Positions 6,789 through 14,048 of a stretch of DNA of 14,048 bases are shown here, piece after piece; position 1 is the stretch's first letter, and each line of letters opens with the position of its first letter. The position numbers and the translations under genes were made by a program. The DNA lies in the IMG/VR virus record IMGVR_UViG_2582580966_000010. One strand, 5' to 3'. Under the pieces are notes generated by a model. That model did no database searches. It had not been told where the DNA came from and saw only the letters and a program-made list of their open reading frames with translations. This DNA is from a virus (lineage: Duplodnaviria > Heunggongvirae > Uroviricota > Caudoviricetes).

Positions 6789-6796
6789 GCCCATAG

Positions 6797-6823
6797 AAAA
6801 GCCCCTCCGGAGAGGGGCTTTTT
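6797..6823. terminator. Bidirectional intrinsic terminator downstream of the TerB operon
   Basis: AAAA-GCCCCTC-cgga-GAGGGGC-TTTTT: a perfect 7-bp GC stem with an A-run and a T-run on either side. Confidence 0.55.
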
Positions 6824-7063
6824 ACAGTGGTAGTGTAGACAATTTTGCATGGTGCCGGGTGCCTCCCGGTGAGTTCAGTATCAGCACCTGAACCCGCACA
6901 GAAAGGATAAGGGTCGGTGACAAAACACCAGTTGCTGATTGCCCCTCCGCACAGGGGGATTCACCATGCCAGTTTCTTTTAACAAACTCCCCGCAAACCA
7001 GACAACAGTCAACCGCCTGAATTGTGAGGTATTTAAAAATTTCAACGGGTAACTGATACCCTG

Positions 7064-7835: not shown

Positions 7836-7912
7836 TGGCGCGTTGTACTGGATTCGAACCAGTGACCGATTGCTTAGAAGGCAATTGCTCTGTCCGGCTG
7901 AGCTAACAACGC
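7836..7912 (-). tRNA. tRNA-Arg (anticodon UCU)
   Basis: Hand-folded cloverleaf: acceptor GCGTTGT/ACAACGC, D-arm GCTC...GAGC, anticodon stem ATTGC/GCAAT with loop CTTCTAA, T-arm CTGG-TTCGAAT-CCAG, then discriminator and an encoded CCA. Confidence 0.8.
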
Positions 7913-7928
7913 AGGATACAGATAATGA

Positions 7929-8002
7929 ACCGCCTTCGGGGATCCGAACTCCGCGCAACCAGCTTCGAAGGCTGGCGCTCTTTCCTGATGAGCTAATGGC
8001 GG
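7929..8002 (-). tRNA. tRNA-like gene, Arg (anticodon UCG), imperfect and without encoded CCA; possibly degenerate
   Basis: Cloverleaf with anticodon stem CCAGC/GCTGG and loop CTTCGAA. The acceptor stem has one A-A mismatch and the T-stem one A-C mismatch. The 3' end is followed by TCA rather than CCA. Confidence 0.5.
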
Positions 8003-8009
8003 TATGTGA

Positions 8010-8085
8010 TGGTGGCCCTTGCTGGATTTGAACCAGCGACCTGGCGATTATGAGTCGCTCGCTCTCACCACTGAGCTAAAGGGCC
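8010..8085 (-). tRNA. tRNA-Ile2 (anticodon CAU, ileX/ileZ-like; a Met assignment cannot be excluded from sequence alone)
   Basis: Sequence GGCCCTTTAGCTCAGTGGTGAGAGCGAGCGACTCATAATCGCCAGGTCGCTGGTTCAAATCCAGCAAGGGCCACCA. The anticodon stem-loop matches E. coli ileX-type tRNA as remembered. Perfect acceptor stem and an encoded CCA. Confidence 0.8.
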
Positions 8086-10589: not shown

Positions 10590-11639
10590 TTACCCGAGCA
10601 CGCCGGTTGCAAAGGCGTGATCAAGAAAACGAAAAATTAAATCAACCTGAGAGCCATGCTTTTCTTCGAACGCCAGCGGATCCGCATGAAGCTCGTTGTG
10701 ATGCTCCCGACACAGCGGTAGCGTGAAAATATCGTGAGATTTTGTCCCCATTCCGCCCTGACCATGACCAATCAGGTGATGGGGATCGTCGGCTGGCTTA
10801 CCACAACACGCACACGGCTGTGTCTTCACCCAGCGCGTGTATTTCTCGTTAACCCAGCGGCGACGTTTAGGTCGTTTCATGAAGGATTCCGGAGACTCCG
10901 GATCAACGGCAATGCTGACCACCGTCTTTTCCTGTGGTGGATTTTGTTGCTGGTGGACGTGAAGTGGCAGCGCAATATTTTTTGTGCGCTGCTTCAGTAT
11001 GCTGATGGCTGTCTGTTCTCCCGGTACGATGTCACTCTCACGGTATACGGAGCGGATTTTTTCCGCTGGTAATCCCAGCGAACGACGCGCTACTGCCTCA
11101 GGTAGTGCATCCACCACCTGATTGCAGGCCGCCCACCAGGATAATTCAGCCAGCGATAATTCACGCTCCTGTGTGCCATTCATTGCGTGACGAATGACGT
11201 CAATCATCCATGCTGACAGGTTTTGGTGAGCAAGTTGCTCAAGTGATTCGGAGGTCTGGTCACGCAACTGGTTGTCGCAGTGCCAGCACAACACCATTGC
11301 GCCGGTACCATAACGGTGAATGACGGTTTCACTGTGGTGATAATCGCCGTGTGGCCACTGGCAGGATTTAACATGGCGCAGTAACCAGTCAGACAATGCG
11401 CCAGCGCCACCAGCAGCACGAATCACTCGTTCGTCGCTGAAAAATGGCAGTAATGATTTATCCTCCGCCAGCGGCTGGCGAACGGCAGGAACGACCCCGG
11501 ACGACAGATTACGCATGCTTTTCGGTTCCGGCTCCACCAGTACCCGGGTATTGTGGAATACCGGCATGGATTCACGGCCCGGCTTAACGATCACCAGCCC
11601 GAGTTCCGGTACCAGAACAGGTCGAAGTAATACCCGCAC
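10590..11639 (-). CDS. ydfU: DUF968-family protein with C-terminal HNH-like zinc motif (YdfU-like; NinG-region protein)
   Basis: 349-aa ORF with an apparent GTG start; an internal ATG is also possible. Near-identical in pattern to Qin YdfU as remembered. C-terminal CACCGKPADDPHHLIGHGQGGMGTKSHDIFTLPLCREHHNELH. Confidence 0.75.
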   Translation of the reverse strand: MRVLLRPVLVPELGLVIVKPGRESMPVFHNTRVLVEPEPKSMRNLSSGVVPAVRQPLAEDKSLLPFFSDERVIRAAGGAGALSDWLLRHVKSCQWPHGDYHHSETVIHRYGTGAMVLCWHCDNQLRDQTSESLEQLAHQNLSAWMIDVIRHAMNGTQERELSLAELSWWAACNQVVDALPEAVARRSLGLPAEKIRSVYRESDIVPGEQTAISILKQRTKNIALPLHVHQQQNPPQEKTVVSIAVDPESPESFMKRPKRRRWVNEKYTRWVKTQPCACCGKPADDPHHLIGHGQGGMGTKSHDIFTLPLCREHHNELHADPLAFEEKHGSQVDLIFRFLDHAFATGVLG

Positions 11640-11640
11640 G

Positions 11641-11913
11641 TTACCTCCAGATGCGTTGCTGGAATGTGCGGGACGGACGCGGTGGGCGTTCAGAGTAAGG
11701 AAGCCTGACGGAGATTATCCAGTGACGATAATCGAGGCTGAGAGCTTTCTTAACCTCGAACCCGCGCCTGCGGTAAGAATGAATCAGCCATTCGGCCTGT
11801 TCTTCAGTACATGGTGGGTGTTGGTACCAGTCGGTTTTAAATGCGTGTGAACGCCGCTCATGCCGGATGGCAAGGTCGGTATCAGAATTGTGAAATTTGG
11901 TTTTGTGCGCCAT
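11641..11913 (-). CDS. Hypothetical 90-aa protein, in the position of Qin rem
   Basis: ATG at 11913. Its stop lies 1 nt before the DUF968 start. Assigned by position only (between hok and the ydfU-like gene). Confidence 0.45.
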   Translation of the reverse strand: MAHKTKFHNSDTDLAIRHERRSHAFKTDWYQHPPCTEEQAEWLIHSYRRRGFEVKKALSLDYRHWIISVRLPYSERPPRPSRTFQQRIWR

Positions 11914-11985
11914 CTGTTTTCTCTGCTGGCGCAGCAGGTGTCAGGTGTTCAGGCTGACGTGCGAATTGTAAACCAGAATGCCAGG

Positions 11986-12012
11986 AAAAAACAAAACCCG
12001 CCGAAGCGGGTT
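11986..12012 (-). terminator. Intrinsic terminator of the hok transcript
   Basis: Minus-strand RNA: AACCCGC-uucg-GCGGGUU followed by UUGUUUUUU, about 70 nt downstream of the hok stop. Confidence 0.6.
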
Positions 12013-12080
12013 AAGTGCGGGTGCGTTGAGGATGCCTGACACATCAGAGGTGGCGAGGGATTTCTCCCCCGCCAGGTCTC

Positions 12081-12236
12081 TTACTCCTCAGGTTCGTAAG
12101 CTGTGAAGACAGCGACCTCCGTCTGGCCGGTTCGGATTCGTACCTCGCAGAGGTCTTTCCTCGTTACCAGTGCCGTCACAATGACGGTTAAACAGATGAC
12201 GATCAGGGCGATTAGCATCGCCTTTTGCTGCTTCAT
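12081..12236 (-). CDS. hok: Hok-family type I toxin (identical in sequence to HokD/RelF as remembered)
   Basis: Hand translation gives MKQQKAMLIALIVICLTVIVTALVTRKDLCEVRIRTGQTEVAVFTAYEPEE (51 aa): one TM helix plus a periplasmic tail with conserved Cys. Confidence 0.9.
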   Translation of the reverse strand: MKQQKAMLIALIVICLTVIVTALVTRKDLCEVRIRTGQTEVAVFTAYEPEE

Positions 12237-12293
12237 AGCCTGCTTCTCCTTGCCTTTCGGCACGTAAGAGGCTAACCTACGTGTGTAGAGCAT
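12081..12293 (-). CDS. mok: mok-like overlapping reading frame (same frame as hok, upstream start)
   Basis: In-frame upstream extension MLYTRRLASYVPKGKEKQA running into hok, as in hok/mok/sok loci where mok translation is needed for hok translation. Confidence 0.55.
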   Translation of the reverse strand: MLYTRRLASYVPKGKEKQAMKQQKAMLIALIVICLTVIVTALVTRKDLCEVRIRTGQTEVAVFTAYEPEE

Positions 12294-12447
12294 AGATATG
12301 GCCTCAGATTAATGTTAAGCGTCTTGCCGGACGCGTAATGTTAACTGGGGCTTTTCTCTATCTGCCTTTTGGTGTTCATGCCTGAGACAGATAGCCTCAA
12401 GCACCCGCTGCAATTCTACTTAACTCTCCTTTTCCCGCAAACCGTTT

Positions 12448-12531
12448 TTATCCCCAGCGGCAAATCGAATACACCACCAGCGCCACCGCCATCGCAATTC
12501 CTACCGTTGTTAATGCTTCAGGCCAGGTCAT
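12448..12531 (-). CDS. Candidate 27-aa hydrophobic peptide (MTWPEALTTVGIAMAVALVVYSICRWG)
   Basis: ATG at 12531 preceded by GGAGGA at 9-nt spacing. Single predicted TM helix. Below the ORF-track cutoff; found by hand translation. Confidence 0.3.
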   Translation of the reverse strand: MTWPEALTTVGIAMAVALVVYSICRWG

Positions 12532-12626
12532 CGTAAAATATCCTCCACGCTTATCAGTCCGTTCCGCTCCAGATAACTCATCGCCTTATCCGGTAATTTG
12601 CAGTCTGGCTTCGCTTTCCTCAGTTG

Positions 12627-12872
12627 CTAGGTTAACTGCTTTACCAGCATGGTTAACTCATCGACCAGACGCTGATATCCCACTGGTTTGTATTCATGCA
12701 ATTTACCGGCTGGCTCTGCTGCCAGCGATACCAGTGCGATTTCCAGAACAGCAATATCCATCTTATATGTGCGGATGATGTCATGGTCGATTGTGCCCGG
12801 TATGCACAGTCTCTGTGCTTCAATAGTCTCCTCTGCGTGAGCTATTAACTGCTCTCTGGTAAAAGTCGTCAT
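12627..12872 (-). CDS. Hypothetical 81-aa protein, paralog of the upstream 55-aa gene
   Basis: ATG overlaps the stop of the upstream gene (ATGA). SD GAAGGGG inside the upstream gene. Shares the N-terminus MTTxTxE and the motif IALxSLxAEP with the 55-aa protein. Confidence 0.5.
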
Positions 12873-13036
12873 GCCGTAGCCCCTTCTTGATATTTTTCAA
12901 ACCAGAACACAACCGGCTCTGCTTCCAGCGATGCCAGCGCAATCCGTGCCAGTTCCATTTGTTCACCACGGGTAAGCCCGTTTTCAAGCGGGTTTTTAAT
13001 GAACAATTCAATACGTTCTTTGGTAATAGTGGTCAT
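12869..13036 (-). CDS. Hypothetical 55-aa protein ([55 protein letters not shown])
   Basis: Hand translation. ATG at 13036 with a strong SD (AAGGAG). Stop overlaps the next start (ATGA). Below the ORF-track cutoff. Confidence 0.45.
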
Positions 13037-13840: not shown

Positions 13841-14048
13841 GGTAATGACTCCAACTTATTGATAGTGTTTTATGTTCAGATAATGCCCGATGACTTTGTC
13901 ATGCAGCTCCACCGATTTTGAGAACGACAGCGACTTCCGTCCCAGCCGTGCCAGGTGCTGCCTCAGATTCAGGTTATGCCGCTCAATTCGCTGCGTATAT
14001 CGCTTGCTGATTACGTGCAGCTTTCCCTTCAGGCGGGATTCATACAGC
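13841..14048 (-). mobile_element. IS1 insertion sequence, right-end portion (IRR at 13841-13863), continuing beyond the window
   Basis: The reverse complement of 13841-14048 matches the IS1 right end as remembered, ending ...CACTATCAATAAGTTGGAGTCATTACC, including the terminal inverted repeat GGTAATGACTCCAACTTATTGAT. Confidence 0.85.
13856..14048 (-). CDS. insB: IS1 transposase InsB, C-terminal part (5' end outside the window)
   Basis: The reading frame ends ...[21 protein letters not shown] with a stop at 13856-13858, matching the InsB C-terminus; the ORF runs off the window edge. Confidence 0.75.

Follow-up and report, generated by a model that had tools for sequence, protein, structure and literature searches.

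Very small hydrophobic proteins of Escherichia coli and its phages are known from several described systems. The type I toxins (viz. Hok/Gef, Ldr, Ibs, ShoB, DinQ and TisB) are inner-membrane peptides of 19-51 amino acids (aa), which contain a single helix and are carried by mobile elements; the small modulators of the inner membrane, such as MgtS (31 aa), AcrZ (49 aa), KdpF (29 aa), PmrR (29 aa) and YohP (27 aa), are made of one transmembrane helix with aromatic flanks and a small-residue face; and the lambdoid phages carry 'ea' and 'nin' accessory genes, which are exchanged as single-gene mosaic units and are dispensable in many relatives. In this work, these systems are compared with an open reading frame (ORF) of 27 codons in the virus record IMGVR_UViG_2582580966_000010 (IMG/VR; Caudoviricetes), a stretch of 14,048 nucleotides (nt) that in its entirety is referred to below as the window, and which represents a lambdoid prophage of E. 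coli, here read along its minus strand. The results described here indicate that many temperate enterobacterial phages (of E. coli, Shigella and Salmonella) very probably carry this small ORF as a real protein-coding gene, which has been mostly missed by annotation. Judging from its sequence characteristics, it is likely to encode a translationally coupled, single-pass inner-membrane peptide of phage early operons, which is separate from the adjoining hok locus and behaves as a mosaic unit of one gene. The features of the window that are central to this interpretation are the following.

12448-12531, minus strand: the 27-codon small ORF (ATG at 12531-12529, TAA at 12450-12448; from the list of ORFs), encoding a predicted single-pass membrane peptide, MTWPEALTTVGIAMAVALVVYSICRWG
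12541-12546, minus strand: Shine-Dalgarno (SD) sequence GGAGGA, read from the sequence and located in a part of the upstream gene that was formerly coding
12528-12531, minus strand: ATGA start/stop overlap, in which the TGA at 12530-12528 ends the intact 114-aa upstream gene of strains KMi006, ABU 83972 and others
12627-12872, minus strand: the upstream gene, which is 114 aa long in relatives (no Pfam match) and is cut to 81 aa in the window by a TGG>TAG change at 12627-12629

A hydrophobic ORF of this length behind a GGAGGA sequence was noted in the original prediction, which was made from the DNA alone, and it is present as described. The grand average of hydropathy of the peptide is 1.13, and its 19-residue core (ALTTVGIAMAVALVVYSIC) averages 2.16 on the Kyte-Doolittle scale. 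The spacing of the SD, which had been called ideal, is workable; however, the spacer of 9 nt (TATTTTACG) is near the upper limit of what is usual. Likewise, the description of the ORF as unannotated holds for the RefSeq/PGAP annotations of near-identical loci and for the records of phages 933W and VT2-Sakai, but a few GenBank submitters have named the peptide as 'prophage protein', 'bacteriophage protein' or 'hypothetical protein', with no function given. The small ORF is shorter than anything called in the annotations that were examined, and it is almost never annotated. Since the last 2.5 kb of the window contain 38 ORFs of at least 20 aa, the occurrence of this ORF is in itself not beyond chance, and it is the evidence for its conservation in other sequences that indicates it to be more than that.

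Homologs of the small ORF were sought by means of a degenerate pattern for its first seven codons, which identified 120 viral contigs, 111 of them with a true homolog; together with other loci these provided 118 copies. The ORF is exactly 27 codons long in 113 of these copies, and of the other five, one is cut by the end of its contig, one has an in-frame deletion of 6 nt, two have lost the stop codon and one is rearranged. Disruption of the ORF in close homologs, which the original prediction had proposed as a check upon itself, is therefore limited to truncation or extension in just 3 of the 117 complete copies, and the prediction withstands it. The 113 intact copies represent 51 different DNA haplotypes. 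For codons 8-27, which were not constrained by the search pattern, the proportions of synonymous (pS) and nonsynonymous (pN) differences in the frame of the ORF are 0.21 and 0.074, respectively (pN/pS of 0.35), and the pN/pS values for the same columns in the two shifted frames are 0.93 and 1.32. The start, length and position of the stop are all retained in divergent members differing by up to 31% in their DNA, examples of which are MNWPEAFTAVGVAIAVAFILYSLFRWG from BP-4795, MSWPDAIVTLGMVFAAAFVVYSICRWG from PhiR12_5 and MTWPEAFTTVGVVMAVAFAVYSVCRWG from TH18. For the divergent pairs, the ratio of nonsynonymous to synonymous substitution rates (dN/dS) is in the range of 0.13-0.55, with values in the other frames that are mostly near or above 1, and the three most distant pairs give Fisher p values of 2e-4 to 1e-3. 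The stop codon varies among TAA, TGA and TAG at a constant position, and the residues M1, W3, P4, A6, G11, A15 and W26 are invariant. In-frame purifying selection, in conjunction with a conserved start, stop and ribosome-binding site (RBS), is the pattern by which the coding of a small membrane protein was judged, and this pattern is displayed by the small ORF.

It could be argued that no gene is present here and that the 84 nt are instead a conserved non-coding element (viz. an RNA element, or a linker for recombination between the modules of phages) in which the reading frame is incidental. The junctions of mosaic modules at both ends of the 84-nt unit, which are described below, are in accordance with such an explanation, as are its length below that of called genes and its near-absence from annotations. 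However, the substitutions are codon-position biased and conservative in the frame of the small ORF only; further, the start, the stop position, the SD and the ATGA overlap are kept over the full range of DNA divergence and in unrelated contexts. The RNA structure of this region also does not exceed that of shuffled controls (fold z of +1.5 and +0.9), and no Rfam family overlaps the small ORF. The fold z-scores and the codon-position bias lead us to reject the RNA-element reading of the 84 nt, and the non-coding explanation taken as a whole is highly improbable.

The context in which the small ORF occurs is similarly conserved. In 116 of the 118 loci its start codon is overlapped, as ATGA, by the TGA stop of a preceding ORF that is open over tens to hundreds of codons. 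These upstream ORFs end in at least four unrelated C-termini, viz. ...SVEDILR (the family found in the window, with no Pfam match), ...PEPPQEVNQ in DUF551 proteins, ...NIEQ(E/K)VN(Q/R) in the 933W L0139 / Stx2-II c34 family (Stx, Shiga toxin), and ...KKKGMNQ in the 'EaA' protein. A GGAG or GAGG core is present 5-11 nt ahead of the ATG in 112 of 117 loci, and the RBS exists in two versions, GGAGGATATTTTACGATGA and (C)AGGAGGTGAATCAATGA. Because the second of these is common to otherwise unrelated upstream genes, the last ~14 nt ahead of the ATG appear to travel with the small ORF. The blastn matches start exactly at the ATG, and the recombination joints are located either at the ATG or ~14 nt before it, and immediately past the stop, where many different downstream junctions are seen. 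In BP-4795-type phages, the small ORF exactly fills an 87-nt gap between annotated genes, and what comes next to the small ORF on its downstream side can be a hokD/hokW locus, DUF4222-xis-int or an intrinsic terminator. Two strains, E. coli W and 5CRE51, keep the ...CGATGA of the upstream gene, which is then followed by an unrelated insert, beyond which lies the same hokD module in 5CRE51 and an ISNCY transposase fragment in E. coli W. The insert in these two strains contains a different, unannotated ORF of 59 aa (L256 1206-1385 in 5CRE51; the insert is also in L255, E. coli W) with two hydrophobic segments (MKNALQFLFVAFWLFVSCMPIIFTARYMEKVDVLILIFGYINALFLGVFMAVMCIEYWR) and a GGAGG SD.

No sigma-70-like promoter was predicted inside the upstream gene by a consensus scan. 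As the small ORF has no promoter of its own, is the downstream partner in an ATGA overlap and possesses its own SD, its expression as part of a polycistronic early transcript is probable. It would be translated from such a transcript of the nin or ea region of the phage, on which the ribosomes terminating on the preceding gene would re-initiate at the small ORF, with the SD allowing some direct initiation. Programmed -1 frameshifting, by which the upstream frame would continue into the small ORF, was also considered and was rejected, as no slippery heptamer is read at either version of the RBS. The window itself presents a special case in this regard. Near-identical loci (99.9%) of other E. 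coli strains encode a hypothetical protein of 114 aa (WP_000206826.1) in place of the 81 codons, and in the intact gene the GGAGGA falls in the last codons (...S V E D I L R stop). In the window, the upstream translation stops at the premature TAG, 96 nt short of the ATG of the small ORF, and positions 12528-12626 are left as the formerly coding remainder. Due to this, the coupling is lost in the window, where translation of the small ORF would rest on GGAGGA alone. As the TGG>TAG change is the sole difference from strain KMi006 across 501 nt, this copy of the upstream gene is a fresh pseudogene.

These characteristics distinguish the small ORF from some of the described systems and place it closer to others. 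A classical moron is equipped with a promoter and a terminator of its own, whereas the small ORF is promoterless and its translation usually depends upon the preceding gene; the ATGA overlap leaves no room for a promoter, although a terminator is present directly past its stop in many contexts that lack an immediately adjacent hok. The mok-hok genes also make use of overlapping frames to couple translation to a small membrane peptide; however, the coupling of mok and hok takes place within the hok mRNA and is what Sok targets, while the small ORF is coupled to an unrelated phage gene outside of it. The similarity is greater to the lambdoid 'ea' and 'nin' accessory genes, as the small ORF is located among Ead/Ea22-like, EaA, DUF551, DUF4014 and DUF7167 genes in the early-left or nin regions and shares with them both the exchange as a single-gene unit and the dispensability. 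To our knowledge, 27 codons is much shorter than any named ea or nin gene.

In the window the small ORF is followed by a hok locus, the features of which are given below, and its relationship to this locus needs to be considered.

12413-12440, minus strand: putative hok promoter (-35 TTGCGG at 12440-12435, spacer of 16 nt, -10 TAGAAT at 12418-12413), read from the sequence; the first feature of the hok module
12231-12406, minus strand: 5' leader of the hok mRNA, GGGUGCUUGAGG..., extending from +1 to the hok AUG (Rfam RF01794 'sok', 117 bits, E = 6e-28, model positions 1-157)
12081-12293, minus strand: mok, 70 aa, an in-frame N-terminal extension (from the list of ORFs; mokW is annotated likewise in 933W)
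12081-12236, minus strand: hokD, 51 aa (WP_000813254.1 in relatives; hokW is annotated likewise in 933W)
12285-12355, plus strand: Sok antisense RNA, predicted by homology with the sokW annotation of 933W

The -10 of the putative hok promoter aligns with the TATAAT of K-12 hokC and is located 6 nt ahead of the first position of the Rfam model for the hok leader, and the promoter is identical in 933W, in which the order is likewise L0139, the unannotated small ORF and then sokW/mokW/hokW. The promoter scan missed it because its -35 matches at 3 of 6 positions only. RF01794 bears the name 'sok antitoxin', but it matches on the hok-sense strand and not on the antisense Sok strand; a match to this family is thus a sign of the hok leader, and the direction of Sok should not be taken from it. 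Between the small ORF and the hokD ATG (12236), which is downstream of it, there are 211 nt; the stop of the small ORF is 42 nt before the putative 5' end of the hok mRNA (12406), where the RF01794 match starts, and 7 nt before the putative -35. The placement of the ORF in the leader region upstream of mok, as stated in the original prediction, is thus not correct, since the ORF is outside of the hok transcript.

It was further suggested in that prediction that the peptide may be a leader peptide regulating hok/mok. One form of this explanation is that translation of the small ORF, or its termination 7 nt before the -35, controls the transcription of hok or the fate of read-through transcripts. 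A hokD/hokW-type gene is indeed present on the same strand in 76 of the 109 copies with enough downstream sequence, mostly at a distance of 210-211 nt (the others being at about 374, about 460 or >1,000 nt), and the stop of the small ORF abuts the putative hok promoter. However, the small ORF is not part of the hok mRNA, the hok module starts directly past its stop and recombines independently, and in the remaining 33 of these copies (30%) there is no hok but a strong intrinsic terminator, a convergent type II toxin-antitoxin pair, or DUF4222-xis-int. In K-12 hokC, the homology extends from the -10 onward, inclusive of the leader, with nothing in common upstream and no such ORF, and K-12 hokD is likewise without the small ORF; conversely, it is another ORF that precedes the hok module in 5CRE51. 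Selection is also seen to act upon the amino acid sequence and not on the mere act of translation, and in the published work on hokW-sokW the functional constructs are described under an arabinose promoter, with no mention of the upstream ORF. The small ORF is, therefore, neither located within the hok mRNA nor co-inherited with hok loci, and a role as a hok leader is largely refuted by the anatomy of the locus; we regard this explanation as having next to no likelihood. Three modules can thus be told apart here, viz. the upstream gene, the 84-nt ORF and the hok locus; the small ORF should not be interpreted as a hok leader or as a regular component of the hok locus, and its adjacency to hok in the window reflects a linkage of two separate accessory modules.

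Two other observations concern the distal part of the hok locus. An ORF of 59 aa on the plus strand (11860-12039), which in KMi006 is annotated as the hypothetical protein WP_001112736.1, overlaps the 3' end of hok and its terminator in the antisense orientation, and looks like a doubtful gene call. In addition, a sub-threshold match to Rfam isrK (11991-12072, minus strand; 27 bits versus a gathering threshold of 50) covers the stem-loops and the terminator that are present 3' of hokD.

With regard to the nature of the peptide, one bilayer-spanning hydrophobic segment is predicted on the basis of the mean hydropathy of the 19-residue core and the tryptophans W3 and W26 that flank it. These two residues are 23 positions apart, which corresponds to about 34 A of helix, and they would sit roughly one at each membrane interface; the residues G11xxxA15 form a small-residue face. 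The sole basic residue, R25, is near the C-terminus, and by the positive-inside rule this suggests an orientation with the N-terminus outside and the C-terminus inside. Its most likely action would be that of a small accessory protein of the inner membrane in phage early expression, acting via helix-helix contact with a membrane protein of the host or the phage. In its size, single helix, aromatic flanks and small-residue face it resembles the MgtS, AcrZ, KdpF, PmrR and YohP proteins, and similar to the small inner-membrane modulators of E. coli, it too has been missed by gene callers and would be expected to bind a larger membrane protein by contact between helices. However, unlike the MgtS/AcrZ class, the peptide is phage-borne, is absent from the Qin, Rac and DLP12 prophages, and belongs to a phage early operon and not to a stress regulon. 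The profile matches of the peptide are limited to KdpF and a glycine-zipper domain and are at chance level; searches of Pfam, NCBIfam and PHROGs with E values up to 10 likewise yielded chance-level matches only (DUF883_C, 0.029; KdpF, 0.12; phrog_4612, 0.011).

Several points weigh against the interpretation that the small ORF encodes a membrane peptide of this kind. The set of viral contigs leans to close relatives and the search pattern fixes the first seven codons; the pN/pS value of 0.35 is moderate only, and the pairwise comparisons are not independent of each other. In some genomes the helix is expanded in frame by hexanucleotide units, (AM)n or (AV)n, giving peptides of 29, 31 or 35 aa, and the tolerance of such expansions argues that the constraint on helix length is loose. 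No ribosome-profiling or proteomic record of the peptide was found; it is not present in the supplements of the ribosome-profiling study of enterohaemorrhagic E. coli Sakai, where the shortest size class described is 30-39 aa, and in the preprint on small proteins of CFT073, as far as its printed coordinates go, the two small ORFs that have them (SMP3 and SMP7) are both different from the one considered here. Lastly, the mode of action is our inference, as the peptide has no partner, phenotype or homolog of known function. Concerning the expansions, the GCGRTG quasi-repeat in codons 13-20 looks slippage-prone, and the expanded homologs are from other genomes (P0064, P0066, P0072, P0074, P0077 and P0078).

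A different role for the peptide is suggested by three cases of in-frame fusion, in which the 27-residue segment forms the C-terminus of an upstream protein. Two of these involve diverged Ead/Ea22-like proteins of 143 aa (6 contigs) and 206 aa, which are located before DUF4222-xis-int, and the third involves a protein of 78 aa that occupies the nin slot before hok (the fusion loci are L259 2501-2932, L258 156-776 and L267 2001-2237). Based on the existence of these fusions, and on the near-invariant ATGA coupling across unrelated partners, the peptide could be viewed as a detachable, split tail anchor, which travels together with an RBS of its own, is coupled to whichever early protein of the Ead/Ea22, EaA or DUF551 type is upstream, and would be produced in step with that protein and tether or recruit it to the inner membrane. 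A capacity of the peptide to anchor the upstream product in the membrane is weakly suggested by the fusions. However, the C-termini of the upstream proteins are so diverse that a specific protein-protein contact with them is unlikely, and since a 1-nt indel at the ATGA overlap easily yields fusions of this type, they may be accidents. In our assessment it is unlikely that the peptide is such an anchor, and the interpretation that it is a translationally coupled accessory peptide of the inner membrane is preferred.

The type I toxins are the class to which the original prediction had matched the peptide by size and hydrophobicity. The part of this proposal that stands is that the peptide is small and hydrophobic; membership in the class is not supported. 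The start codon of the small ORF lies across the stop of the gene before it, and the small ORF is therefore left with neither a promoter nor a 5' untranslated region (UTR) of its own, much less the long structured 5' UTR of the type I toxins; no fold that occludes the SD is predicted, and a weak hairpin of 7 bp alone touches it. The search for an antisense RNA on the plus strand, which had been proposed, revealed no sigma-70-like promoter on that strand between 12000 and 12950 (by a consensus scan, which is not a mapping of transcripts), and the nearest antisense RNA is Sok, ~92 nt away. The peptide also has no match to hok/gef, Ldr, Ibs or TisB in Pfam or NCBIfam. An antisense RNA, a promoter with an occluding 5' UTR, and membership in a toxin family, which were the three type I characteristics looked for, are thus all lacking.

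A broader version of the toxin explanation is that the peptide kills the host or arrests its growth by some other means, possibly as a kil-like peptide of the early operon, which depolarises or perturbs the inner membrane upon induction of the prophage and is otherwise silenced by repression of the operon. The peptides of the ShoB, DinQ and TisB class are of a similar size and hydrophobicity, and it is in keeping with a toxic function that the small ORF is confined to phage early operons, which are off in lysogens, that it is a frequent neighbour of hok, which encodes another membrane toxin, and that a different small membrane ORF fills the same slot in some genomes. However, a strong, unobstructed SD together with translational coupling is the opposite of the tight translational repression of type I toxins. 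Apart from the results for antisense RNA and toxin families, up to 7 copies of the unit per genome are tolerated and the fusions to upstream proteins persist. Based on these considerations, a toxin is an unlikely identity for this peptide, although it may be toxic upon over-expression, and an accessory role of the coupled membrane peptide is favoured.

The 84-nt unit is widely distributed. There are 3,105 matches to it in 1,631 of 5,426 complete E. coli genomes (about 30%), with no genome having more than 7, and in all but one of the matching E. coli records the match spans at least 80% of the 84 nt. By tblastn the peptide is found at 59-100% identity in 94-95 phage records, and its carriers include the Stx phages 933W, VT2-Sakai, Min27, BP-4795 and ArgO145, the P1-like phage SJ46, and the rV5-like phages Av-05 and vB_EcoM_TH18. 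The unit is also carried by 226 plasmids of E. coli and Salmonella, which are mostly non-mobilizable and about 90-120 kb in size, and the copy in SJ46 is of the same kind. When a 45-aa in-frame translation padded around the peptide was used as the query, the protein matches were solely from E. coli, Shigella and Salmonella, and they are named 'hypothetical', 'bacteriophage protein' or, wrongly, 'DUF551 partial'; a concatenate of the divergent variants of the peptide, used as a protein query, recovered almost nothing. A profile search of 1.84 billion representatives identified more divergent metagenomic members of 24-33 aa, which are located in tightly packed operons of small phage-like genes. 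In a scan of genome contigs with a degenerate 20-mer, chance matches in unrelated phyla dominate, with one E. coli match (L195) among the matches listed, and for this reason the taxonomic range given here is taken from the phage, plasmid and protein collections. No homolog is present in Qin, Rac and DLP12, the three lambdoid prophages of K-12 that were checked, which accounts for the peptide having no K-12 gene name (EcoCyc). An apparent clustering of the exact peptide with DUF551 proteins of 121 and 185 aa is an artefact, as those proteins end in ...PEPPQEVNQ and do not contain the peptide.

The remainder of the window is in keeping with its identification as a lambdoid prophage. The order on the minus strand is replication-region genes, small nin-like genes, a 55-aa gene (12869-13036), the 81-aa ORF, the 27-aa ORF and the hokD locus, which is followed by a 90-aa gene, DUF968, RusA, the Q antiterminator, three transfer RNA (tRNA) genes and the small RNA STnc100. 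The DUF968 (ydfU-like) gene (10590-11639; 349 aa) is intact in the window and is a pseudogene with an internal stop in the near-identical KMi006 (L001 1591-2640). The tRNA genes, viz. Met(cat), Arg(tcg) and Arg(tct), are located at 7836-8085 on the minus strand downstream of Q, and STnc100 (145.6 bits) is at 6789-6998 on the same strand. This layout of STnc100, tRNA genes and Q presumably resembles that of Stx phages, no search for stx genes having been made. In another genome (P0083), the first 20 codons of the small ORF are joined to a sequence identical to a 20-aa stretch at 13859-13921 (plus strand) of the window, which implies a rearrangement junction elsewhere between the small ORF and this region.

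The finding reported here is in itself of an otherwise ordinary kind, viz. a small phage membrane protein that was missed as it is shorter than the genes usually called by automated annotation. A widespread peptide gene is newly recognised, whereas the category of annotation-missed small phage membrane proteins to which it belongs is already known. Its significance lies in part in its prevalence, as about 30% of complete E. coli genomes carry the unit, and so do the reference Stx phages 933W and VT2-Sakai, yet their annotations omit it; no family in Pfam, NCBIfam or PHROGs and no paper in the searchable literature (text and searchable supplements) covers the peptide or contains its sequence. 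Since K-12 is without a copy in the three lambdoid prophages that were checked, the surveys of small proteins in K-12 would not have seen it. For studies of hok, the results call for caution, as the conserved block directly upstream of the hokD/hokW promoters is a separate coding gene, and clones or deletions of 'hok-sok loci' that reach upstream may include or remove the small ORF. For the phages that carry it, the small ORF provides a clean case of a gene-sized mosaic unit of 84 nt with a conserved signal for translational coupling.

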